A stretch of 59,875 bases of DNA from Actinomycetota bacterium (GTDB lineage Bacteria > Actinomycetota > Thermoleophilia > RBG-16-64-13). The first letter of the stretch is position 1. Each line of letters opens with the position of its first letter. Made by a program: the position numbers and the translations under genes. Below, piece after piece: positions 10,293-49,491 of this stretch. Where the stretch lies: contig DAIRFC010000003.1 of assembly GCA_036795215.1 (NCBI GenBank), forward strand, positions 17,600 to 77,474, read 5' to 3'. The notes under the pieces are model-generated. The model did no database searches, was not told where the DNA came from, and was given only the letters and a program-made list of their open reading frames with translations.

Positions 10293-10297
10293 GTGGT

Positions 10298-10331: not shown

Positions 10332-10446
10332 GAGCCACACTACCCGGTTCCGCTTGCACTCGCGGGTACGCAAAAGCCGCTCCACCGGGCAGCGTGGCTC
10401 CGGATGCGGGAGGGAGCCCCTCCCGGCCTCTTCCTCATGGGAGGGG

Positions 10447-10612
10447 GTTGCTGAGTGCCCCGTCCTCACGGGTAGGGCTTCAGTGAGTGGCCTCGCCTTC
10501 GGCATCGGCGAACCGGCAGGTTGTTGCTGAGTGGCCTCGCCTTCGGCTTTGGCGAACTGGAGTGTTGTTGCTGAGTGGCCTCGCCTTCGGCATCAGCGAC
10601 ACGGCGGGTGTG
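10447..10612. repeat. Tandem repeat, 44-bp period, three full units plus one partial unit
   Basis: TTGTTGCTGAGTGGCCTCGCCTTCGGC occurs at 10521 and 10565. The core TGAGTGGCCTCGCCTTCGGC occurs at 10484. A partial GTTGCTGAGTGCC occurs at 10447. The 17-19 nt between cores is also similar (ATCGGCGAACCGGCAGG / TTTGGCGAACTGGAGTG / ATCAGCGACACGGCGGG). Confidence 0.9.
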
Positions 10613-17156: not shown

Positions 17157-17160
17157 CCCC

Positions 17161-17586
17161 ATGGTGTTGGTGTCGGAAGATCTGGAGATCCCAGAGACGG
17201 AGTTCTCTTTCACCACCTCTCGCAGCAGCGGCCCGGGGGGGCAGAACGTCAACAAGGTGAGCACCCGCGTGACCCTACTCTGGAGCGTGAAGGAATCGCC
17301 GAGCCTGAACGACCAGCAGCGGGAGCGCGTGTTCCAGCGCCTCCCCGGGCGCATCAACCGCGAAGGGATCCTGCGGGTGGTGTCGCAGCGCCACCGCACG
17401 CAGCTGGCCAACCGCGAGGCCGTGGTGCGGCGTTTCGGTGAGCTGCTGCGCGAGGCCCTGTCCGACGCGCCCGAGCGTATTGCCGTGAAGGTGCCCAAAG
17501 CGGTCAACGCAAAGCGCATCGAGGGGAAGCGGCGCCGTGGCCGTCTCAAGCGCGACCGGGTGGTCGATCTCAGCGACGAGTACTAG
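17161..17586 (+). CDS. arfB: Alternative ribosome-rescue factor ArfB (GGQ-domain peptidyl-tRNA hydrolase)
   Basis: 141 aa with SSGPGGQNVNKVSTRV and a basic C-terminal tail (KRIEGKRRRGRLKRDR). Confidence 0.85.
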   Translation: MVLVSEDLEIPETEFSFTTSRSSGPGGQNVNKVSTRVTLLWSVKESPSLNDQQRERVFQRLPGRINREGILRVVSQRHRTQLANREAVVRRFGELLREALSDAPERIAVKVPKAVNAKRIEGKRRRGRLKRDRVVDLSDEY

Positions 17587-22191: not shown

Positions 22192-24104
22192 CTACGCCTC
22201 CCTTCGGCCGGTGTGAGTATCCCCGTCTCGACCCGCACGGCATCGAACCGGCAGGCTTGGCGGCATGCATCGCACTTGATGCACAGCTTCTGGTCGATGC
22301 GATGTGGCTCCTTGCGTTCGCCGGTGACTGCCCCCGACGGGCAGGCGTTGAGGCAGGCGCGGCAGCCTGTGCAGGCGTCTTTGTCGATCGTGTAACGGAT
22401 GAGCGGCCGGCAGACCTTGGCAGGGCAGCGCCGCTCGAGCACGTGGGCCTCGACCTCTTCTCTGAAGTAGCGGAGGGTGGCGAGCACCGGGTTGGGCGCG
22501 CTGCCCCCGAGGGCGCAGAGCGACCCCTCGACCACATCGTCGGCCAGTCTCTCGAGGAGGTCCAGGTCGTCCATGGTGGCGAGGCCCGCGGAGATGCGCT
22601 CCAAGATCTCGAGCATCCGAGTCGTCCCGACACGGCAGGGCACGCACTTGCCGCAGCTCTCCTCCGCGGTGAACGTGAGGAAGAACTTGGCGAAATCGAC
22701 CATGCAGGTGGTGTCGTCGACCACCACCATGCCGCCGGAGCCCATCATGGAACCGGCCGCCACCAGGCTCTCGAAATCGATGGGCTCGTCCAGCAGCGAA
22801 GCAGGCAGGCAGCCGCCCGATGGTCCGCCCAACTGGACGGCCTTGAACTCGCGACCCGGGAGCATGCCGCCGCCTATCTCGAAGATGACGTCGCGCAGGG
22901 TGGCCCCCATGGGCACTTCGATGAGCCCTCCGTTGACCACCTTGCCGGTGAGCGAAAAGATCTTGGTGCCCTTGCTGGTCTTGGTGCCCAAGGAGGCGAA
23001 CTCCTCGGCGCCGCGGTTGATGATCCACGGCACGTTGGCGTAGGTCTCCACGTTGTTGAGGTTGGTGGGCTGAGCCCAGAGGCCCTGGGCCACGGTGCGG
23101 ATGTGCTTGCCGCGCGGCATGCCGCGCTGTCCCTCGATGGAAAGGGTGAGCGCCGTGGACTCGCCGCAGACGAAGGCGCCGGCGCCCTGGTTGATGCGGA
23201 TGTCGAAGTCGAACCCCGAACCGAGGATGTCTTTGCCAAGGAGATTGTGTTTCCGGGCCTGGTCCAACGCCCAGCGCAGGCGCTCGACCGCGAAGGGGTA
23301 CTCGTGACGGACGTAGACGTAACCGTCGACCGGACCGTTGTCCCAGCCGATGGCGAAGGCGGCGATGATCATGCCCTCGATCACGCTGTGCGGGTTGCCC
23401 TCCAGCACCGAGCGATCCATGAAGGCGCCCGGGTCGCCCTCGTCGGCATTGCAGACGACGTAGTGCTTCTCACCGGGGTTGGCCCGGCAGGAGCGCCATT
23501 TGCGCGCCGTGGGGAAGCCCGCGCCGCCCCGTCCGCGCAGGCCGCTCTTCTCGATCTCGGCGATGACGGCCGCCGGGTCGCCCGCGGCCAAGACTTTGGC
23601 CAGAGCGGTGTACCCGCCGTGGGCCAGATAGTCGTCGAGCGAGAAGGGGTCGATCTTGCCGTTGAGGCTCAGCACGATGCGCTTCTGCAGCGCGTAGAAG
23701 GGGATGTCCTTCTCGAGCGCGATGGGTTCGCCCGTGCGAGGATGCTTGTACAGCAACCGCTCCACTACACCGCCGCCCACGATGGTGGTCTCGACGATCT
23801 CGTCGATATCCTGCGGCCTCAGACGGGGGTAGAAGATTCCCTGGGGACGCACCACGATGATGGGTCCCTGCTCGCAGAAGCCGTGGCAGCCGGTCTCGAC
23901 CACCTTGACCTTATCGGTGAGGCCGCGCTCGGCGAGCGACTTGTCGACGGCCGCACGCAGAGACACCCGTCCCGACGCGTGGCAGGCGGTGCCGGCGCAG
24001 ATGCGGATCTCGGTCTTGGCGTCGTCGGCCAGGTATGCGTTCTTGTCGGCCGCGGCTTTCAGCGCGGCTTCGATCTTGGCGGCGAGAGTGGCGGCGGACA
24101 TCAT
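22188..24104 (-). CDS. NuoF/HydB-like NAD(H)-binding FMN Fe-S flavoprotein (BfuB-type)
   Basis: N-terminal thioredoxin-like 2Fe-2S (CAGTACHASG, CHGFCEQGP). GLRGRGGAGFPT FMN/NADH site. ESCGKCVPCR. C-terminal 2x CxxCxxCxxxC(P). AGGAGG precedes ATG 24104. The listed 855-aa ORF start is rejected. Confidence 0.9.
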   Translation of the reverse strand: MMSAATLAAKIEAALKAAADKNAYLADDAKTEIRICAGTACHASGRVSLRAAVDKSLAERGLTDKVKVVETGCHGFCEQGPIIVVRPQGIFYPRLRPQDIDEIVETTIVGGGVVERLLYKHPRTGEPIALEKDIPFYALQKRIVLSLNGKIDPFSLDDYLAHGGYTALAKVLAAGDPAAVIAEIEKSGLRGRGGAGFPTARKWRSCRANPGEKHYVVCNADEGDPGAFMDRSVLEGNPHSVIEGMIIAAFAIGWDNGPVDGYVYVRHEYPFAVERLRWALDQARKHNLLGKDILGSGFDFDIRINQGAGAFVCGESTALTLSIEGQRGMPRGKHIRTVAQGLWAQPTNLNNVETYANVPWIINRGAEEFASLGTKTSKGTKIFSLTGKVVNGGLIEVPMGATLRDVIFEIGGGMLPGREFKAVQLGGPSGGCLPASLLDEPIDFESLVAAGSMMGSGGMVVVDDTTCMVDFAKFFLTFTAEESCGKCVPCRVGTTRMLEILERISAGLATMDDLDLLERLADDVVEGSLCALGGSAPNPVLATLRYFREEVEAHVLERRCPAKVCRPLIRYTIDKDACTGCRACLNACPSGAVTGERKEPHRIDQKLCIKCDACRQACRFDAVRVETGILTPAEGRRR

Positions 24105-24904
24105 GCCACCTCCTGCTTGCGCAGCCTGCGGACCAGCCGGCGGGCCTCGGTGGGGCCCATTCGGCCGAACGTCTCGTCGGACCCCAGCCGTACCACGGGG
24201 GCCAGGGCACAGGCGCCCACGCAGTTGACCGTCTGCAGGGTGAAGAGGCCGTCGGCGGTGGTGCCGCCCACGGGGATCTCGAGCTCTTGGCTGAAAGCCT
24301 CGACCACCAACGGTGCGCCGGCCACGTGGCAGGCGGTACCCATGCACACGTCGATGACGTATTTGCCCACCGGCCTCAGCCGGAACTGGGAGTAGAAGCT
24401 CGCCACCCCGAAGACCCGCGAGAAGGGCAGGTGCATCTCTTCGGCGATGTTCTCCAGGGCCAGGCGGGGCAGGTAGCCGTAGACGTCCTGGGTCGCGTGC
24501 AGCGCCTCCACCAGGCCGGAGCCGGAGCGGATGCCGGCGATAACCGGATCGAAGAGCTTCATGTCGATCTCGGGAACGAACTCTGCCGGTGGCTCGCCCA
24601 TGACGCACGCCGAAGCGGCTCCGCAGCTCTCTCCCGGCAGCGTGGCCAGGGCGGCGGCCCGGGCGGCCTCGGCGTCGAACGGCTGCTCCGGGAACTCCGG
24701 GCAGTACTCGAGACGGATGGCGTCCACCGGGCAGGTGCGCTCGCACAGAGTGCACGAGTAGCAGCGATAGCCGCCGTCCTCGTTCTTGACCAGATCGAAG
24801 AGCCCGGTGCGGGGTTTCTTGCCTACCAGTTCGCGTTGCTCGAAATCGATGCCCTTGAGGACCTCATAGAGGGCAGAGCCCTTCGGTTCTTTGCCGTTCG
24901 CCAT
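24101..24904 (-). CDS. NuoE/HydC-like 2Fe-2S protein with an N-terminal ferredoxin-like extension (BfuC-type)
   Basis: C-terminal NuoE pattern (ALHATQDVYGYLP, FYSQFRL, VCMGTACHVAG, VNCVGACALAP). N-terminal CYSCTLCERTCP motif. ATG 24904 lies 10 nt after the porA stop and follows GAGGTGG. Confidence 0.85.
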   Translation of the reverse strand: MANGKEPKGSALYEVLKGIDFEQRELVGKKPRTGLFDLVKNEDGGYRCYSCTLCERTCPVDAIRLEYCPEFPEQPFDAEAARAAALATLPGESCGAASACVMGEPPAEFVPEIDMKLFDPVIAGIRSGSGLVEALHATQDVYGYLPRLALENIAEEMHLPFSRVFGVASFYSQFRLRPVGKYVIDVCMGTACHVAGAPLVVEAFSQELEIPVGGTTADGLFTLQTVNCVGACALAPVVRLGSDETFGRMGPTEARRLVRRLRKQEVA

Positions 24905-24914
24905 AGCCGCCACC

Positions 24915-26117
24915 TCAGTCTTCCCGCAGGTTGAGATAGCGGCGCTCCGTGGAGGTCCGCTTCTTGTCCTGCGCGGCTCGTTCGAGCACGGCGAAGGCCT
25001 GCTCGATGTTGTCGGGGAAGATGTCGCGCCCTCCAAGGCCGTAGATGAAGGGAAGCACCTGCGGCCTCGGGTCGTTGTCGTAGAGCGCCGAGCGTATCTC
25101 CATGAACAGGGGCCCGCCTTGAGCTCCGAAAGAATCGGCCCGGTCGAGGACCCCCACCACCTTGATATGCTCGAGCGCCTTCGCGTAGGCCTCGTACGGG
25201 AACGGGCGGAACACACGCAGGCGAACCATGCCGGCCTTGACACCCCTGGCACGCAACTTGTCGACCACCGTTCTCGTGGTCCCGGCCGTGGAGCCCGCTA
25301 CGACGATGGCGATCTCGGCATCTTCGAGGCGGTAGGGATCGAGGAGGCCGTAGTGGCGACCGCTGATCTCGGCATACTCGTCGGCGACGTCCTGGATGAC
25401 CTTGAAAGCTCGGTCCATAGCCCGGTTCTGAGAGACCTTGTGTTCGAAGTACCAACCGTGCAGACCGTCGAACGGCCCCACGGTGACAGGCCGCTTGGTG
25501 TCGAGCAGCGGATTGATGGCGTGGAAGGGCCCGATGAAGTCGCGGACCTTCTCGTCGGGCAGCATGACCAACGGCCCTATGGCGCCGCTGATGACGTACC
25601 CGTCGTACATGTGCATCACGGGCAATCGCACGTCCATGTGCTCGGCGATCCGGATGGCCTGGATGCAATTGTCGTAGGCCTGCTGGTGGTCTTCTCCATA
25701 GATCTGGATCCAGCCGGTGTCGCGCCCCCCCATGCTGTCGCTGTGGTCGCAGTGGATGTTGATGGGGCCCGAGAGAGCCCGGTTGACCATGGTCATCACG
25801 ACGGGGAGCCGGTAGCTGGAGGCCACGTAGAGCAGCTCCCACATGAGCGCGAAGCCCTGCGAAGAGGTGGCCGTCATGGTGCGCGCGCCGGCGGCTGCCG
25901 AGCCGATGACCGCGCTCATGGCCGAGTGCTCCGATTCCACGGTGACGAACTCCGAGCTCACCTTGCCGTCGGCGACCATCTGGGCGTAGAGCTGGACCAC
26001 TTCCGTCTGGGGAGTGATGGGGTAGGCGCAGACCACGTCGGGGTCTATCTGGCGCATGGCTTCCGCGGCGGCTTCGTTGCCGGTGACCGCGACCGTTGCG
26101 ATGATGTCCTCGGTCAC
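24915..26117 (-). CDS. porA: Pyruvate/2-oxoacid:ferredoxin oxidoreductase alpha subunit
   Basis: GNEAAAEAMRQ..VCAYPITPQTE..ESEHSAMSA..GAR..TATSSQG is typical of PorA; 400 aa. Confidence 0.9.
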   Translation of the reverse strand: MTEDIIATVAVTGNEAAAEAMRQIDPDVVCAYPITPQTEVVQLYAQMVADGKVSSEFVTVESEHSAMSAVIGSAAAGARTMTATSSQGFALMWELLYVASSYRLPVVMTMVNRALSGPINIHCDHSDSMGGRDTGWIQIYGEDHQQAYDNCIQAIRIAEHMDVRLPVMHMYDGYVISGAIGPLVMLPDEKVRDFIGPFHAINPLLDTKRPVTVGPFDGLHGWYFEHKVSQNRAMDRAFKVIQDVADEYAEISGRHYGLLDPYRLEDAEIAIVVAGSTAGTTRTVVDKLRARGVKAGMVRLRVFRPFPYEAYAKALEHIKVVGVLDRADSFGAQGGPLFMEIRSALYDNDPRPQVLPFIYGLGGRDIFPDNIEQAFAVLERAAQDKKRTSTERRYLNLRED

Positions 26118-26121
26118 CTCG

Positions 26122-26445
26122 TCACTCCTTGTGTTCGGTCTTCATGACGATGGCGTCCGCGGGGCACTCGCGGGCGCAGATGCCGCAGCCCTTGCAGTGC
26201 TTGAGGTCGACGCCCACCGCCTTGCCGTTCTCGATGATGATGGAGGCGTCGGGGCAGTAGAAGTAGCAGAGCATGCAGCCCGTGCACTTTTTGGCATCGA
26301 TGACAGGCACCTGCGAGCGCCAGCCGCCGGTCTCGAAATCCTCGGAGTTGCCCGCGACAGGGATGGTGGCTCCCAGTTCGTGTCTGTCGGGGCCCCAGGT
26401 ATCGATGTCGCTGACGTCCCAGCGAGGCTTCTTCGCGGCGCTCAT
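26122..26445 (-). CDS. porD: PFOR delta subunit (2x[4Fe-4S] ferredoxin)
   Basis: CTGCMLCYFYCP and CKGCGICARECP motifs; 107 aa. Confidence 0.9.
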   Translation of the reverse strand: MSAAKKPRWDVSDIDTWGPDRHELGATIPVAGNSEDFETGGWRSQVPVIDAKKCTGCMLCYFYCPDASIIIENGKAVGVDLKHCKGCGICARECPADAIVMKTEHKE

Positions 26446-27059
26446 TCGCCTCTGACCTCCTCGTAGGCGCGGGTGATGGCCAAGATGTTGCCTTCCACCA
26501 CCTTGGGCGGGAACTTCTTGCCGAAATCAACGCGCAGGAAATCGACCACGTTCTCGATGGGGAACAGCCCCGTGATGCGGGTGAGAGCGCCGACCATGGG
26601 TGTGTTGGGGATGGGACGGCGTATGGTCTCGACTGCTATACGGGTGGCGTCGATGGTGAAGACCCGGTTGCCCTTGAGCCCATAATGCTTGCGCAACTCG
26701 GCCGGCGCCATCTCGCTGTTCACCAGCACGATGGCATCGGACGGCGCTCCCTTGGTGACATCCACCGTACTGAGCAGGGATGGGTCGAGAACGACGACGA
26801 TGGCCGGATGCTCGATGCCGGCATACACCTGGATAGGCTCGTCGCTCACCCGCGTGAAAGCTACGATGGGAGCGCCTGAACGCTCCGGGCCGTACTCGGG
26901 GAAAGCCTGGAAGTGCTTACCCTGGCCCAGCGCCAACTCGGCTACCATCTTGGCCGCCGTCACGGCTCCCTGGCCACCTCGGGCGTGCCAGCGTATCTCG
27001 GTGAGGCCCTGAGTCGTAAGGTCATGTTCTTTAGCGGCGGCCTTCGCGGGCACAGTCAT
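26442..27059 (-). CDS. porG: PFOR gamma subunit
   Basis: EIRWHARGGQGAVTAAKM...QAFPEYGPERSGAP. ATG 27059 gives an N-terminus of normal length. ATGs at 27104 and 27128 are possible alternatives. Confidence 0.85.
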   Translation of the reverse strand: MTVPAKAAAKEHDLTTQGLTEIRWHARGGQGAVTAAKMVAELALGQGKHFQAFPEYGPERSGAPIVAFTRVSDEPIQVYAGIEHPAIVVVLDPSLLSTVDVTKGAPSDAIVLVNSEMAPAELRKHYGLKGNRVFTIDATRIAVETIRRPIPNTPMVGALTRITGLFPIENVVDFLRVDFGKKFPPKVVEGNILAITRAYEEVRGE

Positions 27060-27175
27060 CCCCCCCACACTAGAGATGTCAAGGAAACTGCCAACGGTTG
27101 ACATCGCCGGTGTCTCCGCACAGCCCATGGAGCAGGTATCACCGCGTCACTCGCAACCGGGGCGAACGACGATTG

Positions 27176-27242: not shown

Positions 27243-27260
27243 CCGGCCGTATCCAACATA

Positions 27261-27350
27261 CCTTGCTAGGGGAGCGTACAGCTGAGAGTGTGGCTTTGCC
27301 ACAGACCCTGCGAACCTGATCTGGGTAATGCCAGCGAAGGGAAGTAACGG
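27261..27350 (+). promoter_or_regulatory. TPP (THI-box) riboswitch
   Basis: CUAGGGGAGCG..GCUGAGA..ACCCUGCGAACCUGAUCUGGGUAAUGCCAGCGAAGGGAAGU matches the universally conserved TPP aptamer core almost base for base. Followed by thiamine genes. Confidence 0.92.
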
Positions 27351-27451
27351 TGATCTGCCTTAGCCCGACCAGTCCATGACCGCCGTTTGGCGGCGCGGGC
27401 AGGTCGTCACTCCCAAGTCGTCTCCCTTGGCGCTCGAACGAGGAGTGGACC

Positions 27452-28090
27452 ATGCACGTGGTCATAGTGGCCGGCTCGAGTCTGGCGGGAGAGCTCGACG
27501 CCTATCTGTTCAATGACGCCGATCTCGTGGTCGCCGTGGACGCCGGGGCCGAGGCGCTCACGAGAGTGGGCCTGACGCCCGACGTACTGATCGGCGATAT
27601 GGATTCCATCAGCGTGGCCACCCGCCTCATGATGGAAGCACGGGGTGTGGAGGTGGTGCTTCTCGAGACGGCCAAAGACGAGACCGACACGGAGGCTGCA
27701 CTGCGCCTGGCCGTCGACCGGGGCGGGGAGGCCGTGACGGTGTATGGAGCGCTGGGCGGGCCGCGCCTGGACCATCTCATGGGCAATCTGATGCTGCTCG
27801 CCTCGCCCTGGCTGGAGGGCGTGGGCGTGCGCATGGTCGACGAGCAACACGAAGCGTTCTTGGTAGGGGGAGACGTCATATTCGGAGGGCGGGAGGGCGA
27901 CATCGTATCGTTGTTGCCGTTGACCCCCGAGGTGGCGGATGTGCGGACCATGGGCCTGCGCTATCCCCTCAACGGCGAGACCCTGTTTCGAGCCGCGACC
28001 CGAGGGGTCAGTAACGCCATGACCGGCCCCGAGGCGCGGGTGACCCATGGAGAAGGCGTGCTTCTCCTGATCCACTATCGAGGGAGGTAG
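27452..28090 (+). CDS. thiN: Thiamine pyrophosphokinase
   Basis: VAVDAGA..PDVLIGDMDS..KDETDTEAAL..GALGGPRLDH is typical of TPK. GAGGAG lies upstream of the ATG. Confidence 0.85.
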   Translation: MHVVIVAGSSLAGELDAYLFNDADLVVAVDAGAEALTRVGLTPDVLIGDMDSISVATRLMMEARGVEVVLLETAKDETDTEAALRLAVDRGGEAVTVYGALGGPRLDHLMGNLMLLASPWLEGVGVRMVDEQHEAFLVGGDVIFGGREGDIVSLLPLTPEVADVRTMGLRYPLNGETLFRAATRGVSNAMTGPEARVTHGEGVLLLIHYRGR

Positions 28091-28092
28091 AC

Positions 28093-28437
28093 ATGGCGAA
28101 AGTAGACAAAGGACCCGGATATATGAGCCAGGAGGTCATGGGCTGCCAGTTCTCCATCTATCCCCTGCGGCAGACGGATATCGGCGTGCCCATCAGGGAG
28201 GCCGTCGAGGCGGCCCGCGCTGAGGGTTGCTCGGTGAGGGTGGGCAATCTGAGCACCCTTCTCACCGGCAGTGAAGACCAGGTCTTCGCCGGGCTGCGGG
28301 CGGCGTTCCGCGCCGCGCAGCGGCACGGCTCCACGGTGATGGCCGCCACCTTTGCGGCCGGCATCCCCACGGACGAGCTGGTGGGTGAGATCCAAGAGCA
28401 GGTCGACGCCGGCCCGGCGCACCATGAGGGCGCGTGA
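28093..28437 (+). CDS. ykoF: YkoF-like HMP/thiamine-binding protein (single ACT-like domain)
   Basis: CQFSIYPL...start and size fit the YkoF/MTH1187 fold. Sits in a ykoFEDC-type operon behind a TPP riboswitch. Confidence 0.65.
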   Translation: MAKVDKGPGYMSQEVMGCQFSIYPLRQTDIGVPIREAVEAARAEGCSVRVGNLSTLLTGSEDQVFAGLRAAFRAAQRHGSTVMAATFAAGIPTDELVGEIQEQVDAGPAHHEGA

Positions 28438-29087
28438 GGTTGGCCATGGCTCGGTTCTTCGACATGATGCGGCGCGGCGTCGCAGCCGCCGCGCGCGGCG
28501 TCGGTCTCACCTTCAAAGAATGGACCACCCGCGAACTGGTGGTGGCCGCCGTGTTGTCGGTGGCCGTGGGGGTCATCTTCTGGGCCTGGGGTCTCTTGTG
28601 GACCAGCGTCTTCAGCCTCATACCCTTCCCCTTTCACTATGCGACCGTGGGAGTCTGGATGACCGGAGGCCTGCTGGTGCCCTATGTGGTGCGGAGGCCC
28701 GGCGCCGCTCTCGTGGGCGAGATCGTCGCGGCCTTCGTGAGCATGGCCCTCGGCAATCAGTGGGGCATCCTCACCATGGCGAGCGGAATCGTGCAGGGAG
28801 TGGGGGCGGAGATCGTCTTCGGGGCCTTCAGGTGGAAGCGCTTCAAAGGCGTGGCGCTCTACGGCGCCGCGGGCTTGGCCGGTTTGTTCAGCATCATCCT
28901 CGACACGTTCGTCTACAGCTACTACGCGATGTATTCCGGCAGTAGCATCCTGGTGGCGGCGGTTCTCTGCATCGTGAGTTCGGTGGTGCTGGGTGGAGGC
29001 TTAGCGCTGCTCCTGGGGGAGGCGCTTGCCAAGACCGGCGTGCTCTCGGGCCTGGAGATCTCGCGGGGGAAGGTGAAGAGGGTCTGA
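28434..29087 (+). CDS. ykoE: ECF-type transporter substrate-capture (S) component, YkoE family (HMP/thiamine)
   Basis: Polytopic membrane protein (WTTRELVVAAVLS..., about 6 TM helices) between ykoF and the duplicated ATPase. Start is GTG 28434 (GTGA overlap) or ATG 28446. Confidence 0.7.
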   Translation: MRLAMARFFDMMRRGVAAAARGVGLTFKEWTTRELVVAAVLSVAVGVIFWAWGLLWTSVFSLIPFPFHYATVGVWMTGGLLVPYVVRRPGAALVGEIVAAFVSMALGNQWGILTMASGIVQGVGAEIVFGAFRWKRFKGVALYGAAGLAGLFSIILDTFVYSYYAMYSGSSILVAAVLCIVSSVVLGGGLALLLGEALAKTGVLSGLEISRGKVKRV

Positions 29088-30892
29088 ACGATTCTGACGC
29101 TCCACCTGAGGTAGAGTCTGCGGGACTGTCGTTCACGTACGCGTCCCGGCTACTGCCGGCACTCACCGATCTGTCGTTCGTCCTGCAGCCCGGTAAGACC
29201 ACGTTGGTATTGGGTCCCAGCGGGTCGGGCAAGAGCACGCTGACCCTCTGTCTGGACGGCCTGATACCGCACGTGGTGGAGGGCGACTACTCCGGGCGGG
29301 TGAGCGTTGCCGGCCTGCTGGTGGGCGACACGCCCGTGCACGTATTGGCTCAGCAGGCCGGCTTGGTCTTTCAGGACCCCGACGCCCAGTTCTGCACCCT
29401 CACAGTGGAAGATGAGGTGGCCTTTGGTCTGGAGAACCTTGGCCGGGCGCCCGGGGACATCGAGGCCGCGATCGACGCGGCGCTCGATTCGGTGGGACTG
29501 GCCGGGTATCGCGGGCGCCGGTTGGACATGCTCTCGGGCGGCGAGAAGCAGCGCGTGGCGTTGGCGGCCGTGCTGGCCATGGGTCCGCGGCTGCTGGTGC
29601 TCGACGAGCCCTCGGCCAACCTCGATCCCCGGGCCACGTCGGAGCTCTTCACCCTGCTGCGTGGGCTGGCTCACGACCGGCGGCATACCGTGGTCATCAT
29701 CGAACACAAGCTCGACGACGTGATCGACTGGGTCGACCGCGTGCTGGTGCTGGACGCCCACGGGCGTCTTCTCTGTCAGGGCGATGCGCGGGAGGTCTTC
29801 TACGCGCACGGCGGCGCGCTCCAGGCGGCCGGGGTGTGGCGGCCGCAGACGGTGGAGTTGGTGACGGGCCTGCGCGAGGCCGGCTGGGAGGTGGAGGGTA
29901 GCCCGCTGGGAGTGGCTGAGACCGCGGCCGCCTTGGCTGCGACGCCGGGGCTCACCGGCCGCCTGCGGGAGGCCGCCGGCTCCCACGGTGGGAGCGGCGG
30001 CGCCCCGCCCGGTCCGGACGAGCCCCTCCTCGCCGTGAAGGACCTCACCTTTCGCTATTCCAACGCCAAGGAGATGCCGGCCGCGCTCACTGAGGTGACC
30101 ATGTCCATGCCTCGGGGAGCCTTCCTCGCCATCGCGGGAGCCAACGGGGCCGGCAAGAGCACCCTGGGGGCTCTCATGACGGGCGTGCTCCGGCCTCCTC
30201 GGGGCCACGTGTTCCTCGAAGGCGAGGACGTGACGGACAGTGGTCCACATGCTCTGAGCAGCCGTGTGGGGTACGTGTTCCAGAATCCCGAGCACCAGTT
30301 CGTCAGCGACACGGTCGTGGGCGAGCTTGCCTACAGCCTCTCGCCCAAGGCAGCCCGCAAAGGAGCCCGGCATCTCACCGACGCCCAACGGGGGCTGACC
30401 GAGACGTGGCTCGACCGCCTCGGCTTGTTGAACCTGGCTCAAGCCAACCCCTTCACCCTCAGCCAAGGGCAGAAGCGCAGGCTCAGCGTGGCGGCCCTTC
30501 TCATCCGCGGGCAGTCGGCGCTGGTCCTGGACGAGCCCACCCTGGGCCAGGATGAGTCCCAGGCCGGCCGGATGATGGCCATGATGCAGGAGTTCCGGGC
30601 CGCGGGTGGCACCGTGGCCATGATCACCCACGACATGAGGCTGGTTTCCGAGTATGCGGATTCGCTCCTTGTCCTTTCACATGGCGGCGTGATGTACTCG
30701 GGCGCCCCCGCCGGCTTCTTCGCCCGCCCGGAACTCGTGGAGGCAAGTGGTCTCGCGGTGCCCGCCATAGGCCGGGTGTGCACTCATATGCACGCGCCGG
30801 CGGCGTTCTCGAACGGTCTGCTGACGGTCCGGGCGTTCCTGGAGACGGCCGGCGCCGGGCCGGGCCGGGGGATAGGACCTGGTGGCGAGTGA
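29084..30892 (+). CDS. ykoD: ECF transporter duplicated ATPase (YkoD-type, two ABC domains)
   Basis: Two sets of ABC motifs: GPSGSGKST / LSGGEKQRV / LVLDEP and GANGAGKST / LSQGQKRRL / LVLDEP. The ABC N-terminus (VESAGLSFTYAS...) lies upstream of the first TTG (29204). Proposed start is CTG 29084, in a CTGA overlap 7 nt after AAGGTGA. Confidence 0.85.
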   Translation: MNDSDAPPEVESAGLSFTYASRLLPALTDLSFVLQPGKTTLVLGPSGSGKSTLTLCLDGLIPHVVEGDYSGRVSVAGLLVGDTPVHVLAQQAGLVFQDPDAQFCTLTVEDEVAFGLENLGRAPGDIEAAIDAALDSVGLAGYRGRRLDMLSGGEKQRVALAAVLAMGPRLLVLDEPSANLDPRATSELFTLLRGLAHDRRHTVVIIEHKLDDVIDWVDRVLVLDAHGRLLCQGDAREVFYAHGGALQAAGVWRPQTVELVTGLREAGWEVEGSPLGVAETAAALAATPGLTGRLREAAGSHGGSGGAPPGPDEPLLAVKDLTFRYSNAKEMPAALTEVTMSMPRGAFLAIAGANGAGKSTLGALMTGVLRPPRGHVFLEGEDVTDSGPHALSSRVGYVFQNPEHQFVSDTVVGELAYSLSPKAARKGARHLTDAQRGLTETWLDRLGLLNLAQANPFTLSQGQKRRLSVAALLIRGQSALVLDEPTLGQDESQAGRMMAMMQEFRAAGGTVAMITHDMRLVSEYADSLLVLSHGGVMYSGAPAGFFARPELVEASGLAVPAIGRVCTHMHAPAAFSNGLLTVRAFLETAGAGPGRGIGPGGE

Positions 30893-31689
30893 TGTCCGCG
30901 GCGGCGTCAGTGTCAGGTTATCTGCAGAAGCTGAACCCGAGCGTCAAATTGCTGGTGGTCGCCCTGGTGGGCCTGTGTCTCACCTTTCTCTACGACCCCG
31001 TGACTCCGGCCATACTCCTGCTGGTCGTTCTGCTGGCCGGGCGTGTCCTGGGGGGTCTAAGACTCTGGTCGCAGTTGAAGCCGCTCTGGGTGTTCCTCCT
31101 AGCCGGGATAGCCATCCTGGTGGCCAACATCCTCTTCAACAAGGAGAACCAGACCGCCGAGGCCATCTTCTATCTCGGTTCGGTGAAGATCACGGGTCCG
31201 GCTTTGTGGGCCGCCGGGACCCTGTGGGTGCGCCTGCTCTGTTTTGCGCTGCTGTCACTCGTCTTCGTCAAGACCACCGAGCCGCAGCGGCTCATCCTCA
31301 GCTTGGTCCATCAGCTGCATCTGAACTACCGGGTGGCCTACGGCACCATGGTGGGCTACCGGATGCTGCCTCTGTTCCAGACCGACTACCAGACCATACG
31401 CGCCGCCCAGAGGGTGAGGGGCGCCCGCGAGGCCACGGGCCTCCTGCATCTGTGGTCGCGGACGCGGCGTTACACCATCCCGCTGTTGGCCGGGGCGGTG
31501 CGCAAGGCGGGACGGATCGCCCTGGCCATGGATGCCAGGGCCTTCGGCGCTCTGCCCGAACGCACTTACCGTGAACGCATGGTCGTGCGGCGCTCCGACT
31601 GGGTGTTCTTGGCCTGTGCGGTGCTGTTGGTCGCTGTCGTGGTGCTCGCTTGCTGGGCCTGCGGCATAGCGAGGTTCGCCATAGAGTGA
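30892..31689 (+). CDS. ykoC: ECF transporter transmembrane (T) component (EcfT/CbiQ, YkoC)
   Basis: Polytopic, with the EcfT-type ARAFG motif (AMDARAFG). TGATG overlap with ykoD. Confidence 0.8.
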   Translation: MSAAASVSGYLQKLNPSVKLLVVALVGLCLTFLYDPVTPAILLLVVLLAGRVLGGLRLWSQLKPLWVFLLAGIAILVANILFNKENQTAEAIFYLGSVKITGPALWAAGTLWVRLLCFALLSLVFVKTTEPQRLILSLVHQLHLNYRVAYGTMVGYRMLPLFQTDYQTIRAAQRVRGAREATGLLHLWSRTRRYTIPLLAGAVRKAGRIALAMDARAFGALPERTYRERMVVRRSDWVFLACAVLLVAVVVLACWACGIARFAIE

Positions 31690-37477: not shown

Positions 37478-38908
37478 TCAGCCCTTCACGACCCCCAAGG
37501 GCCGCAACCGGGCTACTTTGGGCGAGATGCCCGCGCCGTGCATCACGCCTACCACCGCCTCTACATCCTTGTAGGCCTCGGGCATCTCTTCTGCCAGCGT
37601 CTTGCGGCCCTGAGAGCGCACCCAGATGCCTGCCGACTGGAGCTCCCTGTCGATGGCTCTGCCCTGGGCCCGTTTCAGAGCCTGCGAACGGCTCATCACC
37701 CGGCCCGCTCCATGGCATGTGGAGCCGAACGTCTCGGTCATGGCCCGGTCGGTGCCCCTGCACACGAAGGAGGCCGTGCCCATGTCGCCTGGTATGAGGA
37801 CGGGCTGCCCGACCGCCCGGTAGCAGTCGGGGACCTCCGGCCGCCCGGGCCCGAACGCCCTGGTCGCTCCCTTGCGATGGACGCAGGCGTCGACGCTCGA
37901 ACCGGATACCTCGTGCCTCTCCAGTTTCGCGATGTTGTGGGCTACGTCGTAGACCAGGCGTAGGTCGAGGGTCTTGGGGGAGATGCGCAGGGCATGGAGC
38001 AGGGCCTGCTCGGTGAGGTGCATGATCATCTGCCGGTTGGCCCAGGCGTAGTTGGCGGCGCAGGCCATGGCGGAGAGGTATCGCCGTCCCTCCGGAGAGG
38101 TCACCGGCGCGCAGGCCAGTTGACGGTCGGGCAGGTCGATGTGGTACCGGCGGGCGGCGCCGGCCATGACCTCCAGGTAGTCCTCGCATACTTGATACCC
38201 GAAGCCACGCGAGCCGCAGTGGATCATGACGGTGATCTGACCCTTGTCGAGACCGTACGCCGCCGCTGCCACGGGGTCGAAGACCTTGTCCACGCACTGG
38301 ACCTCGAGAAAGTGGTTGCCCGAACCCAGGGTGCCCACCTGATCCTGGCCTCGAGTGTAGGCCCGCTCGCTGATGGCGGCCGGGTCGGCTCCCGGCAACG
38401 CCCCGCCGTCCTCGGTCCGCTCCAAGTCGTCCTTGCGACCATGGCCGTGTTCGACGGCCCAAGCGGCTCCCTTCACCAGGACCTGCTCGAGCTCCCGGCG
38501 CGATAGCTTCGCGATCGCGCCGCTCGACCCCACCCCCGAAGGCACGTCGCCGAAAAGCCGGTCGACCAGCCGGGGGATCCTGCCCCTGACGTCGTCCTCG
38601 TGCAGGCCGGTCGCGATGAGTCGCACGCCGCAGTTGATGTCGTAGCCCACGCCGCCCGGCGAGACCACTCCTTCATCCACGCTGAACGCGGCCACTCCTC
38701 CTATGGGGAACCCGTAGCCGAAGTGGATGTCGGGCATGGCCATGGAATACAAGAGTATGCCCGGTAGGTGAGCTACGTTGGCCACCTGGGCGAGACTCTG
38801 GTCGCCGCTCAGCCCGTCCATGAGCCTCCGGTCGGCGTAGACGCGGCCCGGAACGCGCATACCGCCCGTCTGCGGCAGTTCCCAGATCCACTCGCTTATG
38901 CGTTGCAT
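37478..38908 (-). CDS. rtcB: RNA 3'-phosphate/5'-OH ligase RtcB
   Basis: MPDIHFGYGFPIGG, GYDINCGVR, GSGNHFLE, HCGSRGFG and PGDMG motifs. ATG 38908 follows AAGGTGAGGGA. Confidence 0.92.
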   Translation of the reverse strand: MQRISEWIWELPQTGGMRVPGRVYADRRLMDGLSGDQSLAQVANVAHLPGILLYSMAMPDIHFGYGFPIGGVAAFSVDEGVVSPGGVGYDINCGVRLIATGLHEDDVRGRIPRLVDRLFGDVPSGVGSSGAIAKLSRRELEQVLVKGAAWAVEHGHGRKDDLERTEDGGALPGADPAAISERAYTRGQDQVGTLGSGNHFLEVQCVDKVFDPVAAAAYGLDKGQITVMIHCGSRGFGYQVCEDYLEVMAGAARRYHIDLPDRQLACAPVTSPEGRRYLSAMACAANYAWANRQMIMHLTEQALLHALRISPKTLDLRLVYDVAHNIAKLERHEVSGSSVDACVHRKGATRAFGPGRPEVPDCYRAVGQPVLIPGDMGTASFVCRGTDRAMTETFGSTCHGAGRVMSRSQALKRAQGRAIDRELQSAGIWVRSQGRKTLAEEMPEAYKDVEAVVGVMHGAGISPKVARLRPLGVVKG

Positions 38909-38943
38909 CTCGTCCCTCACCTTCTTGACGAGACCTCTGCTCT

Positions 38944-39414
38944 TCACACGTCCAACAGCACGGTCGCCCTCCATCCGCCTTCGGCCGTCTTCTCGACTGT
39001 GAGCTGGTGATAGGTGACCGCCTTGACTTCCGTGAACAGGGTGTGGCGCCGCCGGTCGACGATCTCGCCGTCCAAGCGGGCGGTGACCCCCACTTCACCG
39101 GCCGGCCGGGTCTGCACGTCTATCTCGGCGCGTGCCGCCACGAACCCCTCGGTGGAGAACAGGTAGAGAGCCTCGGCCAGCAAAGACCGTAATACGGCCG
39201 CAGCGTCCGGCCCCTCCACGGTGATGACCTCTTCGTGCCCCGTGCCGAACCCCGCGAGCTCCGCGATGTGGTCGTAGAGGGCGAAGAGCGCGTTCTCGAA
39301 GACCACGGAGAGATCGTCACCCCATATCTCCAGAAAGACGTCCGCGGGGTGATCGAGGTCCGCGTAGGCCTCGTTGCGGCTATCCGGCTCCCATCGTCTA
39401 GGCCGATCCGCCAT
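38944..39414 (-). CDS. Archease (RtcB activator)
   Basis: 156 aa with HPADVFLEIWGDDL...FTEVKAVTYHQLTV is typical of archease. Directly upstream of rtcB. Confidence 0.85.
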   Translation of the reverse strand: MADRPRRWEPDSRNEAYADLDHPADVFLEIWGDDLSVVFENALFALYDHIAELAGFGTGHEEVITVEGPDAAAVLRSLLAEALYLFSTEGFVAARAEIDVQTRPAGEVGVTARLDGEIVDRRRHTLFTEVKAVTYHQLTVEKTAEGGWRATVLLDV

Positions 39415-46116: not shown

Positions 46117-46443
46117 ATGAGCGATGGGACAGTCCAAGAAGTCAGCACCCAGGAATTCGACCAGATAGTAGGCGCGTCCACCGTGCCCGTTGTGGCAGAC
46201 TTCTGGGCTCCCTGGTGCGGCCCGTGCCGCATGGTAGGCCCTGTTCTGGAAAAACTGGCCGCCGATCACCCCGACACGGTCAAGGTGGTCAAGGTCAACG
46301 TCGACGTCAACCAAGAGTTGGCTGCCCGGTTCGGGATCATGAGCATCCCCACTGTCATCATGTTCAGCGGGGGCGAGGTCAAGAGCCAGCTCATCGGCGC
46401 CCGTGGCCAGAAAGACTACGAGAAAGAGTTCGGGTTGGCCTGA
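46117..46443 (+). CDS. trxA: Thioredoxin
   Basis: WAPWCGPC active site; 108 aa. Confidence 0.95.
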   Translation: MSDGTVQEVSTQEFDQIVGASTVPVVADFWAPWCGPCRMVGPVLEKLAADHPDTVKVVKVNVDVNQELAARFGIMSIPTVIMFSGGEVKSQLIGARGQKDYEKEFGLA

Positions 46444-46658
46444 TGGCTTCGTACGACCTCACATGCCGCTCATGCGGCAAGGACTTCGAGGTGTTCGTCC
46501 TTGGCTTCCTCAAAGAGGAGGCCAAGGTGTGTCCCGATTGCGGCAGCACCGACGTAGAGCAACGTTTCACCAAGTTCGGCGGCGTCATGGGCTCCTCGCA
46601 GTCGTGGTCCGGCGGCGGCGGAGCGGCGAGCTGCCGACCCTCATCCGGGTTCAGTTGA
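46443..46658 (+). CDS. FmdB-family zinc-ribbon protein (CxxC...CxxC)
   Basis: YDLTCRSCGKDFEV...CPDCGSTDVEQ with a Gly/Ser-rich tail. TGATG overlap with trxA. Confidence 0.75.
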   Translation: MASYDLTCRSCGKDFEVFVLGFLKEEAKVCPDCGSTDVEQRFTKFGGVMGSSQSWSGGGGAASCRPSSGFS

Positions 46659-46750: not shown

Positions 46751-46779
46751 GGCTATCGGGCGAAGCGAGAAGGAGTTGC

Positions 46780-47604
46780 ATGCACCCGGAGCTGTTTCAT
46801 ATCGGGGGTTTCACCATGAACTCGTACGGGGTCATGATGGCCCTGGCCTTCATCTCCGCGGGCATCGTGGCCTACTGGCAGTTCAAGAAGCGCGGCGTGA
46901 GGCCCGACTTCATCTACCCGCTGCTCATCGCCACGGTCATCGGTGGCCTGTTGGGCGCGAAGATCCACTACCTCATCATCCATCCCGATGCGTGGCCGGA
47001 GAAGATGCTGAGCGGCCAGGGCCTGGTGTGGTTCGGCGGCCTATTCGGAGCCATCGCGGCCGTCGTCGTGGTGACCCTGGTCACCAAGGAGCGTCTTGCG
47101 GCGATCATGGACGCCGGCGGTCCGGCGGTGGCCATGGGGTACGTGTTCGGCCGGTTGGGTTGCTTCTTGAGAGGTTGCTGCTACGGCGTCGAGACCGATC
47201 TGCCGTGGGGGATGTCGTTCCCGAAGGGAGTGCCTCCGACCCCCGAGGGCGTGCAGGTACATCCTACCCAGCTGTACTCGAGTCTGGCCTCTCTGGTCAT
47301 CTTCGCGCTGCTGGTCTGGGCCATCGGCCCCCGTTTCAAGCGCGAGGGGCCTCTCATCTTCGCCTACGCCGTGCTGGCCGGCATCGAGCGCTTTCTCGTC
47401 GAGTTCATCCGCGCCAACCAGCCGGTCGTCGCAGGGCTCACCCAGCAGCAGTGGATAGCTCTGGCGATGGTGGTCGTGGGCGCAGTGGGCGTGTGGTGGT
47501 TCGGGACTCACGGCCGTCTGCGGCCGGTGGAGCAGGCGGGCGGGACGAATGTGAAAACATCTGTGGCATCCGCGAATGCGGGTTCAGGGAAAGGAAAGAG
47601 CTAA
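46780..47604 (+). CDS. lgt: Prolipoprotein diacylglyceryl transferase
   Basis: GFTMNSYGVMMALAF, GGLLGAKI, GRLGCFLRGCCYG and HPTQLY motifs. Confidence 0.9.
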   Translation: MHPELFHIGGFTMNSYGVMMALAFISAGIVAYWQFKKRGVRPDFIYPLLIATVIGGLLGAKIHYLIIHPDAWPEKMLSGQGLVWFGGLFGAIAAVVVVTLVTKERLAAIMDAGGPAVAMGYVFGRLGCFLRGCCYGVETDLPWGMSFPKGVPPTPEGVQVHPTQLYSSLASLVIFALLVWAIGPRFKREGPLIFAYAVLAGIERFLVEFIRANQPVVAGLTQQQWIALAMVVVGAVGVWWFGTHGRLRPVEQAGGTNVKTSVASANAGSGKGKS

Positions 47605-47608
47605 GACG

Positions 47609-48193
47609 ATGATGTTCATGAGAAAACGAAGCGGTGGCCGACTCGTTGCGATCGGCGCGCTCGCCGTCGCGATGAGCACTGCGCTCGTGCTTGTCACGAC
47701 GGTGCTGGCGGGCTGCGGCTCCGATGCCGACGCCGCCACCACCTCGCAGGGCTCCACGTCGCAGACCTCCACGTCGGCGACGTCGGGCGGCGCCAACCCA
47801 GGCGCGCCGGACTTCTCGGGCGAGACACTCGATGGGACGGCCGTGTCGTTGAGCGCATATCGGGGCAAACCGCTGGTGCTGGCCTTCATGGCCAGCTGGT
47901 GAGGGTCCTGCGGAGCAGAAGCCTCCGAACTCGATAGGTTCTATCGAGAGAACAAAGAAAAGGCAGGACTCCTGGTCATGGCAGTGGGAGATACGCGGGC
48001 GGCGATGGAGAAGTTCATGTCGGCCGGAGGATTCGATTTTCCGGTGATGATGTGTCCCGATGAAGTTGCGATGGCCTACCGGGTCCAGTACATCCCGGCG
48101 ATCTTCGTACTCGATGCGGAGGGCCGCTTGGCGGCGAAGCCCGACGGCTTGGTCACCGCGGCCCAACTGGCGGACATGGTGGCCGGTCTTTAG
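47609..48193 (+). CDS. TlpA/ResA-like thiol:disulfide oxidoreductase lipoprotein with in-frame TGA (47900-47902) at the first CxxC position: candidate selenoprotein (U-G-S-C), alternatively a nonsense pseudogene
   Basis: Signal peptide plus lipobox LAGC. The sequence reads ...GKPLVLAFMASW-TGA-GSCGAEASELDRFY.... The same frame stays open to TAG 48191-48193 and encodes the rest of the redoxin fold. Confidence 0.6.
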
Positions 48194-48306
48194 GGCCGCC
48201 TGCGCGCGGGATTCAGCCGGCGGCAACACCATGACCGATGGAACTGGGACTGTGGGGTGGCCGTCCTAGCGCCGTCGGGGTTGGAGGCCGGGACAGGGGG
48301 TTTGTC

Positions 48307-49491
48307 ATGTTGCAGGTGAAGAAGCACAAGGCTTGGACGGTCGTCACCGTGGGGTTTGTCATCCTGGGGTTGGCGGCGCTGCTCGGGACGGCGGCGTGCG
48401 GGGACGTCCAAGAATCCACTGTCGCCAAGGACTCCGCGCCGACCACGGCTGCTCCCGCCATGACCAGCACCACGTGGGCGGCGTCCGCCACGACCGTGGC
48501 TACGCCGGCCGGCTACCCCGACGATGACGGGTACTACTCCGGCGAGGCCGGCGGGGGGATCGACCAAGCCGTGGCCGGTACACTGACGGCGCTCCAAGCC
48601 GCGTCGGGCCAGAAGATCATCAGCAGCGCCCACCTAGAGATCGAGGTCGAGCAGGGCAAGTTCCAGATGGTCTTCGACCAGGCCATGATGCTGGCGGCCC
48701 GCTACGGCGGCTACCTGGTCAGCTCCGATGCCTATGCGAGTGGTGAAGAAGACAGCATGAAGAGCGGCACCGTGGCTGTGAGGGTCCCAAGCGGCTCCTT
48801 CGCAAAAGCACTCGACGACGCGACCAAGATCGGTACGCTCAAGAAGCACCAGCTCTCCACTGACGATGTGACCGAAGAGTATGTAGACCTGGAAGCCCGC
48901 ATCAAAAACGCCGAGGCCAACGTGAGTTCCCTGCTGGCGCTGCTCGAGAAGGCCGAGACGGTGGACGAGATCCTCTACGTGCGCTCGGTCCTTACATCCG
49001 CCCAGGGGGAATTGGAATCGCTCAAAGGCAGGATGCGCTTCCTCGAAGAGAACACGAGTTACTCGACCATCTCCATGAGCATCTATGAGGTCGGAGCCGA
49101 GACCTTGGAGGACGAGGAGGACTGGGGCTTCATCGCTGCCCTGAAGGGCGGGCTCCGCAACCTGGTGAAGGCGTTCAACGCCATCATCAGAGGTCTGGGG
49201 ATACTGATACCCATCCTCATAGTGCTGGCCATCATCGCCTACATCATCTACGCCATCGTGCGGGCCATAGTCCGCCGCAACCGGGCGCGCGAGCAGGCTC
49301 GATATCAGGCGTACCCGGAGGGTTGGAGGCCGCCGGCGACGGCAGGGATGACGCCCGCCGGTGGGCCGCAGGCGGCTCCTGCCGCGGCACCGGCCGCGCA
49401 GCCCGCCGGTCAGGCGACGGCAGAGGCGAAGCCCTCTACCGGTCAGGCGCCACAGGGCGAAGAACCGCGTGAACCCGGCAAGCAAGGCTGA
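48307..49491 (+). CDS. DUF4349-domain protein (possible lipoprotein, C-terminal TM, Pro/Ala-rich tail)
   Basis: The region from ...AHLEIEVEQGKFQ... to ...YVDLEARIKNAEANVSSLLALLEKA.., including ..YSTISMSIYE, is typical of DUF4349. N-terminal signal with ...TAAC. ATG 48307 follows CAGGGGG. Confidence 0.7.
   Translation: MLQVKKHKAWTVVTVGFVILGLAALLGTAACGDVQESTVAKDSAPTTAAPAMTSTTWAASATTVATPAGYPDDDGYYSGEAGGGIDQAVAGTLTALQAASGQKIISSAHLEIEVEQGKFQMVFDQAMMLAARYGGYLVSSDAYASGEEDSMKSGTVAVRVPSGSFAKALDDATKIGTLKKHQLSTDDVTEEYVDLEARIKNAEANVSSLLALLEKAETVDEILYVRSVLTSAQGELESLKGRMRFLEENTSYSTISMSIYEVGAETLEDEEDWGFIAALKGGLRNLVKAFNAIIRGLGILIPILIVLAIIAYIIYAIVRAIVRRNRAREQARYQAYPEGWRPPATAGMTPAGGPQAAPAAAPAAQPAGQATAEAKPSTGQAPQGEEPREPGKQG

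Follow-up and report, generated by a model that had tools for sequence, protein, structure and literature searches.

An in-frame UGA followed by conserved RNA hairpins in a lipoprotein redoxin gene of uncultured Actinomycetota: a candidate selenocysteine codon

Known relatives and the interrupted redoxin gene

The catalogued selenoproteins already include families whose names refer to DsbA, DsbG and thiol:disulfide interchange proteins (PMC13188914), and the thioredoxin-fold examples with a U-x-x-C site (U, selenocysteine or Sec) cited in 2006 came mainly from Deltaproteobacteria and Clostridia (PMC1794560). The consensus of the bacterial selenocysteine insertion sequence (SECIS), as given in a 2026 review of prokaryotic selenoproteomes, combines an upper stem of 4-16 bp with an apical loop of 3-9 nt (PMC13188914, Fig. 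2A). A G is found within the first two positions of the loop, usually followed by G or U (N1-G-[G/U]-N-N2), the UGA and the apical loop are separated by 16-37 nt, and the minimum free energy (MFE) is -7.5 kcal/mol or lower (PMC13188914). Here we describe a redoxin gene with an in-frame UGA codon in a 59,875-nucleotide stretch of DNA from an uncultured Actinomycetota bacterium (assembly GCA_036795215.1, contig DAIRFC010000003.1, positions 17,600 to 77,474), referred to as the window. Comparison with its orthologues makes it very probable that this UGA is read as Sec in an exported lipoprotein.

The gene resembles the catalogued UxxC thioredoxin-fold selenoproteins (PMC13188914, PMC1794560) in its Pfam assignment (AhpC-TSA/Redoxin), in the putative Sec standing for the N-terminal Cys of CxxC, in having its SECIS candidate inside the coding region and in the coexistence of Cys-form homologues; all of them have been identified by computation only. 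It differs from them in that its clade consists of uncultured Actinomycetota and in that the product is a predicted lipoprotein encoded in a housekeeping neighborhood linked to lgt. The window gene would be a selenoprotein gene of a known kind, and the clade has possibly been listed already (the catalogued reference sequences are WP_010940744.1, MGB1650493.1 and HEU0032618.1). Membership of two NCBIfam families was considered and rejected. NF041054 ('ResA-like WAxxUGC motif-containing protein') also describes a ResA-like selenoprotein, but the window protein scores 22 bits where the cut-off is 300, and NF041046 ('UGSC-containing protein') shares the letters UGSC, but the window protein gives no match. 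The two middle residues of UxxC are free to vary in the family studied here (GS, SS, ST, GA, PS, GT and others) and, therefore, the UGSC of the window is a coincidence.

The frame that had been read from the sequence alone, from ATG 47609 through TGA 47900-47902 and G-S-C to TAG 48191-48193, agreed with the DNA: the TGA comes directly after the W97 codon (47897-47899) and is followed by 96 sense codons in the same frame. The proposal that the TGA occupies the position of the first Cys in W-C-x-x-C was borne out by alignment with the first CxxC Cys of Bacillus subtilis ResA and Streptococcus pneumoniae Etrx2. Sequence matches to S. pneumoniae Etrx2 (2yp6, 6.6e-16) and B. subtilis ResA (4.5e-15) span the UGA, and so do the Pfam matches AhpC-TSA (2e-19) and Redoxin (5.5e-16), which cover residues 66-175 when the TGA is read as Cys. 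The AlphaFold model of a Cys orthologue with 70% identity (P0001) has a predicted local distance difference test score (pLDDT) of about 90 across the domain. Its best fold match in the PDB is ResA, with a template modeling (TM) score of 0.79 and a root-mean-square deviation (rmsd) of 1.9 Å, followed by StoA, DsbF, SdbA and Etrx, and protein helix α1 begins at residue 95, directly after W93-C94. The NCBIfam model of the ResA subfamily, NF002854, gives the window protein 71.2 bits, under its cut-off of 170. Judged by these scores the protein resembles ResA and is not filed as ResA proper.

B. subtilis ResA and StoA, S. pneumoniae Etrx1 and Etrx2, Streptococcus gordonii SdbA and mycobacterial DsbE and DsbF have the same fold (TM about 0.79, rmsd 1.8-2.0 Å), the W-C-x-x-C that opens helix α1 and an extracytoplasmic location, and Etrx1 and Etrx2 are lipoproteins as well. 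However, all of these proteins use Cys. The window locus also differs from ResA-type systems in having no cytochrome c maturation, msrAB or ccdA gene nearby, and none was found in the window as a whole.

Conservation of the frame and of the RNA element beyond the UGA

Orthologues were collected in two scans. One genome per GTDB species was scanned with peptide patterns that end at W97, before the TGA codon, and therefore the next codon was not prejudged. The DNA pattern applied to JGI metagenome contigs reached as far as the codon of the second Cys and included no hairpin. The genome scan returned 23 loci (related loci are designated L followed by a number): 19 had W-TGA-x-x-C with the frame continuing, two had W-TGC/TGT-G-P-C (L024 and L029) and two were unrelated redoxins. 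Among the 66 loci of the metagenome scan, about half were chance matches with no redoxin frame and the rest were family members. Whether orthologues carry Cys or TGA at this codon had been left open by the sequence-only reading; TGA was found in 42 distinct sequences, the window included, all of which carry the main hairpin described below, and a Cys codon (TGY) was found in four relatives (L001, L002, L024 and L029). The invariance of the second Cys was partly set by the metagenome search pattern, and it was also complete among the matches to the peptide patterns. The hosts are metagenome-assembled genomes (MAGs) of uncultured 'Actinomycetes', 'Thermoleophilia' and 'Actinomycetota' from anaerobic digesters, sediments and Danish soils. 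A first protein search had returned only four homologues, owing to its word index, and an exhaustive one showed the TlpA-like superfamily to be very large (64,359 representatives) but added nothing specific.

By our own arithmetic, the chance that a frame stays open for 96 codons after a stop is about 8% at 65% GC, and for that reason the single sequence is not decisive. The comparative evidence for a gene beyond the UGA is decisive. The stop codon lies at the same place in every complete member, 96-99 codons from the UGA, and the median pairwise ratio of nonsynonymous to synonymous substitution rates (dN/dS) was 0.37 after the hairpin and 0.18 before the UGA. These values indicate that the frame past the UGA is translated and under purifying selection. 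Elsewhere in the window TGA is the commonest stop codon, terminating 30 of the 56 likely genes, including rplI and the thioredoxin gene. Since it is an ordinary stop there, the genetic code is standard and the recoding would be local.

The neighboring Lgt protein was used to look up assemblies of the same species, and six independent ones were found (five ENA samples and one NCBI MAG). The 585 bp of the redoxin gene were identical in all six, whereas the window and these assemblies differ at 35-80 sites over 20.8 kb. The TGA at 47900-47902 is fixed in the species and is neither a sequencing error nor a recent mutation.

At its N-terminus the protein has the features that had been noticed in the sequence alone, a hydrophobic segment that closes with the lipobox L-A-G-C36. 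A hydrophobic N-terminus followed by [LVA][AGSV][GA]C was matched in 34 of the 42 TGA-form orthologues, and most of the others are on short contigs or belong to genes that run past the available DNA. The mature protein, of about 16 kDa, is likely to be a membrane-anchored, outward-facing reductase of the ResA/TlpA/Etrx type, as its sequence suggests. Its predicted Sec-containing tryptic peptide is ...MASW-U-GSCGAEASELDR.

Two RNA helices follow the UGA. Both had been located correctly in the sequence-only reading, which gave the second a stem of 7 bp; the stem in fact has 8 bp. This second hairpin, helix 2, has an MFE of -9.5 kcal/mol in the window and encodes L-D-R-F-Y-R of helix α1, and its loop lies 35 nt from the UGA (47903-47937) in all members. 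A 22-nt block, GAACUCGAUAGGUUCUAUCGAG, is essentially invariant in nucleotides across all TGA forms. The residues E-L-D-R-F-Y-R within it are each written with a single codon (GAA, CUC, GAU, AGG, UUC, UAU and CGA, respectively) in 95-100% of the sequences, and these codons are non-preferred for a GC-rich genome. Elsewhere in the protein, residues that are just as fully conserved draw on 2-5 codons, the commonest of which accounts for 40-75%. Helix 2 is paired in 99.7% of the cells of the 42-sequence alignment. Compensatory changes replaced C-G by U-A in L027 and L067 and A-U by G-C in L067, G-U wobbles occur in L039, L067 and L082, and the sole break in pairing is a change of the loop-closing G to A in L037.

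Helix 1 lies between the UGA and helix 2 and is joined to the latter by a linker of 2-3 nt that ends in AA (GAA in the consensus register). The register of helix 1 in the sequence-only reading was rejected as a family-wide structure: it is paired in only 64% of the cells and is held by the window, L011, L047 and L057, as opposed to 89.5% in the family register, which is shifted by one position. At pair 29-42, which joins the second base of a codon to the synonymous third base of a Pro codon, 25 sequences have G-C, 11 have A-U and 3 have G-U. The observed covariation score was reached in none of 500 column shuffles, and controls slid along the alignment were 29-50% paired. These patterns indicate that the RNA structure after the UGA is under selection. 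Apart from the palindromic self-match, the window has no further copy of helix 2 at up to three mismatches, and each orthologous locus has one.

Compared with the published bacterial consensus, helix 2 agrees at every point. Its loop is GUU (3 nt) or, with the closing pair open, G-GUU-C, which matches N1-G-[G/U]-N-N2. All 42 sequences have G-U as the first two loop nucleotides, and the length of the stem, the spacing and the MFE given above all lie within the allowed ranges; two covarying variants have MFE values of -9.4 and -7.7 kcal/mol. Helix 1 starts about 10 nt after the UGA and fits the consensus less well, because it has a GARN loop with no G or U as second base, is only 15 nt away from the UGA and takes another register in the window. 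Helix 2 is likely to be the part bound by SelB, with helix 1 serving as a spacer or positioning element. With bacterial SECIS elements (E. coli fdhF type, bSECISearch consensus) the element shares the placement of a hairpin in coding DNA shortly after the UGA, a small apical loop in which U follows G, and a stem length, spacing and stability of helix 2 that lie within the consensus. It differs from them in that helix 2 begins 27 nt from the UGA, with its loop near the upper limit at 35 nt, in that a second covarying helix fills the gap between the UGA and helix 2, and in that the sequence of helix 2 is almost invariant across an order-level clade.

In the four Cys forms the homologous stretch does not fold into a hairpin (0 to -2.3 kcal/mol), and its codons are the GC-preferred ones (GAG AUC GAC ... 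UAC). In a neighbor-joining tree L001 and L002 fall inside the Sec clade and L024 is basal. L001, which has TGT at the codon, is the closest relative of the window that was found (70% identity). The nesting of L001 and L002 implies that Sec is ancestral for the lineage of the window and that the change from Sec to Cys is derived in these two. Taken together, the sequences indicate that UGA changed to UGY at least twice and that the hairpin decayed each time. Orthologues with TGC and no conserved hairpin had been named in advance as a finding that would speak against Sec; such sequences do exist, but they are a minority whose hairpin was lost, and the 42 TGA forms keep it.

Two further observations were made at Cys-form loci. 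Between positions 1-1736 of L001 and 46767-48500 of the window, the Lgt proteins are 93% identical and the adjacent redoxins 70%, and close to the 3′ end of lgt the nucleotide identity, about 90% up to there, drops to about 70%. This drop suggests either a recombination breakpoint or a fast divergence of the redoxin tied to the switch from Sec to Cys. The L029 gene (about 9900-10503), probably a decaying copy, is interrupted by an in-frame stop ahead of the active site (D*AGKPLV) and terminates only 47 codons past the codon for the active-site Cys.

Explanations for the in-frame UGA

We favor, with considerable confidence, the explanation that a SECIS directs the insertion of Sec at the U-x-x-C site of a thiol-disulfide reductase, which is exported as a lipoprotein. 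SelB loaded with Sec-tRNA(Sec) would be recruited by an mRNA element within the coding sequence, and the UGA would be read as Sec. In order, this element comprises a covarying helix of variable sequence that begins some 10 nt past the UGA, a short linker and a near-invariant 8-bp hairpin topped by G-GUU-C. Export of the product would be followed by lipidation at Cys36, carried out by the Lgt whose gene lies just upstream, and the lipid would anchor the protein to the membrane on its outward side. In that position its thioredoxin fold could use the selenol/thiol pair U98-x-x-C101 to reduce disulfides, or oxidized Cys or Met, in envelope proteins, with Sec as the attacking residue and a CcdA/DsbD-type membrane protein supplying the electrons. 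The redox direction, the substrate and this route of electron supply are inferred. A Sec-containing extracytoplasmic oxidoreductase was one of two readings offered from the sequence alone, and it gained support from the TGA fixed in six assemblies and present in 42 orthologues, from the dN/dS of 0.37 and from a bacterial SECIS-type hairpin that occurs in all TGA forms and in no Cys form. The accompanying remark that an exported selenoprotein would be unusual was overstated. DsbA, DsbG and thiol:disulfide interchange enzymes are normally extracytoplasmic, and selenoprotein families bearing these names are among those catalogued.

Several observations weigh against Sec insertion as outlined here. 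ARAGORN found no tRNA of any kind, and hence no tRNA-Sec, in the window or in 25 related loci. Searches by tblastn with E. coli SelA, SelB and SelD queries gave no match in the 0.98 Mb made up of the window and the loci, and no sel gene appears among the Pfam assignments for the window and for the stretch immediately past its downstream end. Little weight attaches to the absence of the machinery, since the DNA searched covers only a small and largely syntenic fraction of each genome. The window and the related loci yielded no second selenoprotein gene: a naive all-versus-all scan was swamped by the out-of-frame conservation of GC-rich DNA and, after a codon-position GC filter, only the redoxin family recurred. 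No Rfam family covers the RNA element; a permissive scan of 47850-48010 gave chance-level matches only. The invariance of F-M-A-S-W-TGA and TGY in the alignment is partly due to the search patterns, which fixed those letters. With regard to the RNA, helix 1 of the window pairs in a register shifted relative to the family, and helix 2 is close to the far end of the permitted spacing. The minimal hairpin of E. coli fdhF sits about where helix 1 does, some 10 nt after its UGA. The identity of the SelB-binding helix is uncertain, because helix 1 has the position of the fdhF hairpin and helix 2 is near the spacing limit.

Translation past the UGA could also take place with no selenium if the hairpins stimulated the insertion of Cys, Trp or another amino acid. 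The decoding tRNA might be near-cognate or a suppressor, for example, or a Sec-like system charged with Cys might be at work. Two points suit this possibility: no Sec machinery turned up in the window or in the loci examined, and the evidence from translation and RNA structure does not tell which residue is inserted. We nonetheless consider it unlikely. The UGA coincides with the position of the catalytic Cys, and in relatives nothing but Cys codons takes its place, which is the signature by which selenoproteins are defined, and the hairpin obeys both the loop rule (G then U) and the spacing rule of bacterial SECIS elements. Moreover, the use of Sec is documented in Actinobacteria such as Rubrobacter (PMC1794560). 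From the Sec/Cys pattern at the catalytic Cys and the fit to the SECIS consensus we infer that Sec, and no other amino acid, is inserted.

Another possibility is that the locus makes two separate products, a lipoprotein of 97 residues that stops at W97 and a protein of 71 residues translated from ATG 47978. These are exactly the fragments given by public gene calls, which split the redoxin gene in every assembly examined into unnamed products of 97 and 71 residues, the latter called from ATG 47978, and both fragments are on record, nameless, from about 20 contigs. However, neither fragment is a whole thioredoxin fold, and both halves are required for the fold model and for the alignment with ResA. 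All orthologues conserve, in frame, the 25 codons that separate the TGA from ATG 47978. The truncated form would lack a redox centre, because the CxxC is cut at its first residue. For these reasons two products seem very improbable.

The second reading offered from the sequence alone, a pseudogene created by a recent TGC-to-TGA nonsense mutation with the downstream frame as a decaying remnant, was refuted by the comparative data, and we give it hardly any credence. The TGT of L001 and the roughly 8% chance of an open frame of 96 codons would be compatible with it. Against these stand the TGA in 42 distinct orthologues, the conserved position of the stop, the dN/dS of 0.37, the synonymous sites frozen in the hairpin and the derivation of the Cys forms L001 and L002, the former being the closest relative, from within the Sec clade. 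A sequencing or assembly error at the A of 47902, which has in its favor only the prior that single-base errors occur, can be dismissed as next to impossible, as six independent assemblies from different samples and assemblers are identical there despite flanks that differ at 35-80 sites, and the 97-residue fragment is on record from 20 contigs.

A more far-reaching version of Sec insertion can be put forward only tentatively, and we regard it as rather doubtful. The element might be a distinct, two-part bacterial SECIS, with a variable helix at ribosome-entrance distance (about 10 nt) and an invariant hairpin 27 nt after the UGA that is read sequence-specifically by the SelB of this lineage. 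The protein might also be the selenoprotein, main or sole, on which retention of the Sec trait depends in an anaerobic clade of uncultured Actinomycetota, working as a surface-anchored selenol reductase.

Gene neighborhood, other features and significance

The location of the redoxin gene directly after lgt, seen in the sequence alone, was confirmed, as lgt ends 4 nt ahead of the ATG. In all orthologous loci with enough flanking DNA, lgt lies immediately 5′ of the redoxin gene, and the gene order is UPF0182, a metallo-beta-lactamase-fold gene on the opposite strand, thioredoxin, FmdB zinc ribbon, lgt, redoxin, rpsF and ssb. A DUF4349 gene usually sits between the redoxin gene and rpsF and is absent in a few loci. 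Its product has a lipobox-like motif of its own (LLGTAAC-GD) and, therefore, lgt is trailed by two putative lipoprotein genes. Public calls start the DUF4349 gene 23 codons later (394 aa) than its longest open reading frame (417 aa). In the Cys-form relative L002, a small 'Se_S_carrier' gene (PF11823; 5127-5390, minus strand) lies between the UPF0182 and metallo-beta-lactamase-fold genes, where the window has no gene. Two candidates for further selenoprotein genes in this neighborhood were rejected. The FmdB neighbor belongs to a family listed as a UxxU selenoprotein and is in the Cys form in all loci, and the TGA that precedes a GGUUC-topped hairpin inside lgt of L028 and L073 is out of frame. 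Table 1 lists the features of the locus.

Table 1. Positions in the window of the redoxin gene, its proposed recoding element and neighboring genes
Feature	Position	Strand	Description
Redoxin gene, candidate selenoprotein	47609..48193	+	585 bp, ATG 47609 to TAG 48191-48193; 194-residue prolipoprotein, ResA/TlpA-type thioredoxin fold, predicted U98-G-S-C101 site
Signal peptide and lipobox L33-A34-G35-C36	47609..47716	+	Read from the sequence; Cys36 (47714-47716) is the predicted lipidated residue
In-frame UGA, proposed Sec codon (U98)	47900..47902	+	Aligns with the N-terminal Cys of W-C-x-x-C
Second Cys of U-x-x-C (C101, TGC)	47909..47911	+	Cys codon (TGC or TGT) in every family member
Helix 1	47911..47927	+	Window pairing CGGAG (47911-15) / CUCCG (47923-27); family register at the equivalents of 47913-17 / 47922-26
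Helix 2, proposed SelB-binding SECIS hairpin	47930..47948	+	CUCGAUAG-GUU-CUAUCGAG; 8 bp, 47930-37 / 47941-48, loop 47938-40
lgt (prolipoprotein diacylglyceryl transferase)	46780..47604	+	Pfam LGT 1e-53; conserved upstream neighbor
Cytoplasmic thioredoxin gene	46117..46443	+	Conserved upstream neighbor
FmdB-family zinc-ribbon gene	46443..46658	+	Conserved upstream neighbor
DUF4349 gene	48238..49491	+	Frequent downstream neighbor; own lipobox-like motif

Other parts of the window and of the related loci were inspected as well. The only gathering-level Rfam match in the window is a thiamine pyrophosphate (TPP) riboswitch (RF00059, 67.7 bits) at 27258-27359 on the plus strand. The genes that follow it (27452-31689) encode a thiamin pyrophosphokinase, a YkoF-family protein and a transporter of the energy-coupling factor (ECF) type (ABC_cobalt, two ABC_tran domains and CbiQ), and 27258-31689 is probably a thiamine salvage and uptake operon. 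On the minus strand, 19105-27128 holds two very large fused redox genes that adjoin genes for subunits of a 2-oxoacid:ferredoxin oxidoreductase (24915-27128). The first (1028 aa) combines a 2Fe-2S domain, a GltD-like domain for flavin adenine dinucleotide and nicotinamide adenine dinucleotide (FAD/NAD), a 4Fe-4S domain and a TPP-binding domain, and the second (855 aa), whose exact product is not on record in the protein collection, combines a NuoF-like flavin mononucleotide (FMN) domain with ferredoxin domains. This fusion architecture is unusual. In L007, the gene for the RtcB RNA ligase (700-2129, corresponding to 37478-38974 of the window, minus strand), which adjoins an archease gene, is called as a shortened product of 315 residues and has a 1-base indel relative to the window, probably a strain-specific frameshift. 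A 237-residue protein encoded at 16873-17586 (plus strand) has only the RF-1 (peptidyl-tRNA hydrolase) domain and resembles ribosome rescue factors of the ArfB type, and a full-length release factor gene (PCRF and RF-1 domains) lies just upstream of the window, beside secA (L032 1972-2994).

These results do not overturn current understanding, as selenoproteins discovered by computation are most often UxxC proteins of the thioredoxin fold. Their main value lies in the correction of an annotation across a clade, in a clean case of the constraint and decay of a putative SECIS element, and in the two-helix signal. The lineages that changed from UGA to UGY amount to a natural experiment, in which the lost hairpin and the regained GC-preferred codons make the dual constraint of coding and RNA structure visible. 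The two-helix layout also poses a concrete question, namely which part SelB reads. The block GAACUCGAUAGGUUCUAUCGAG may be used as a search marker for these genes and, by implication, for members of the clade that would use Sec. Reading the UGA as Sec would restore a complete, conserved redox enzyme of the envelope across a clade of uncultured Actinomycetota living in digesters, sediments and soils.

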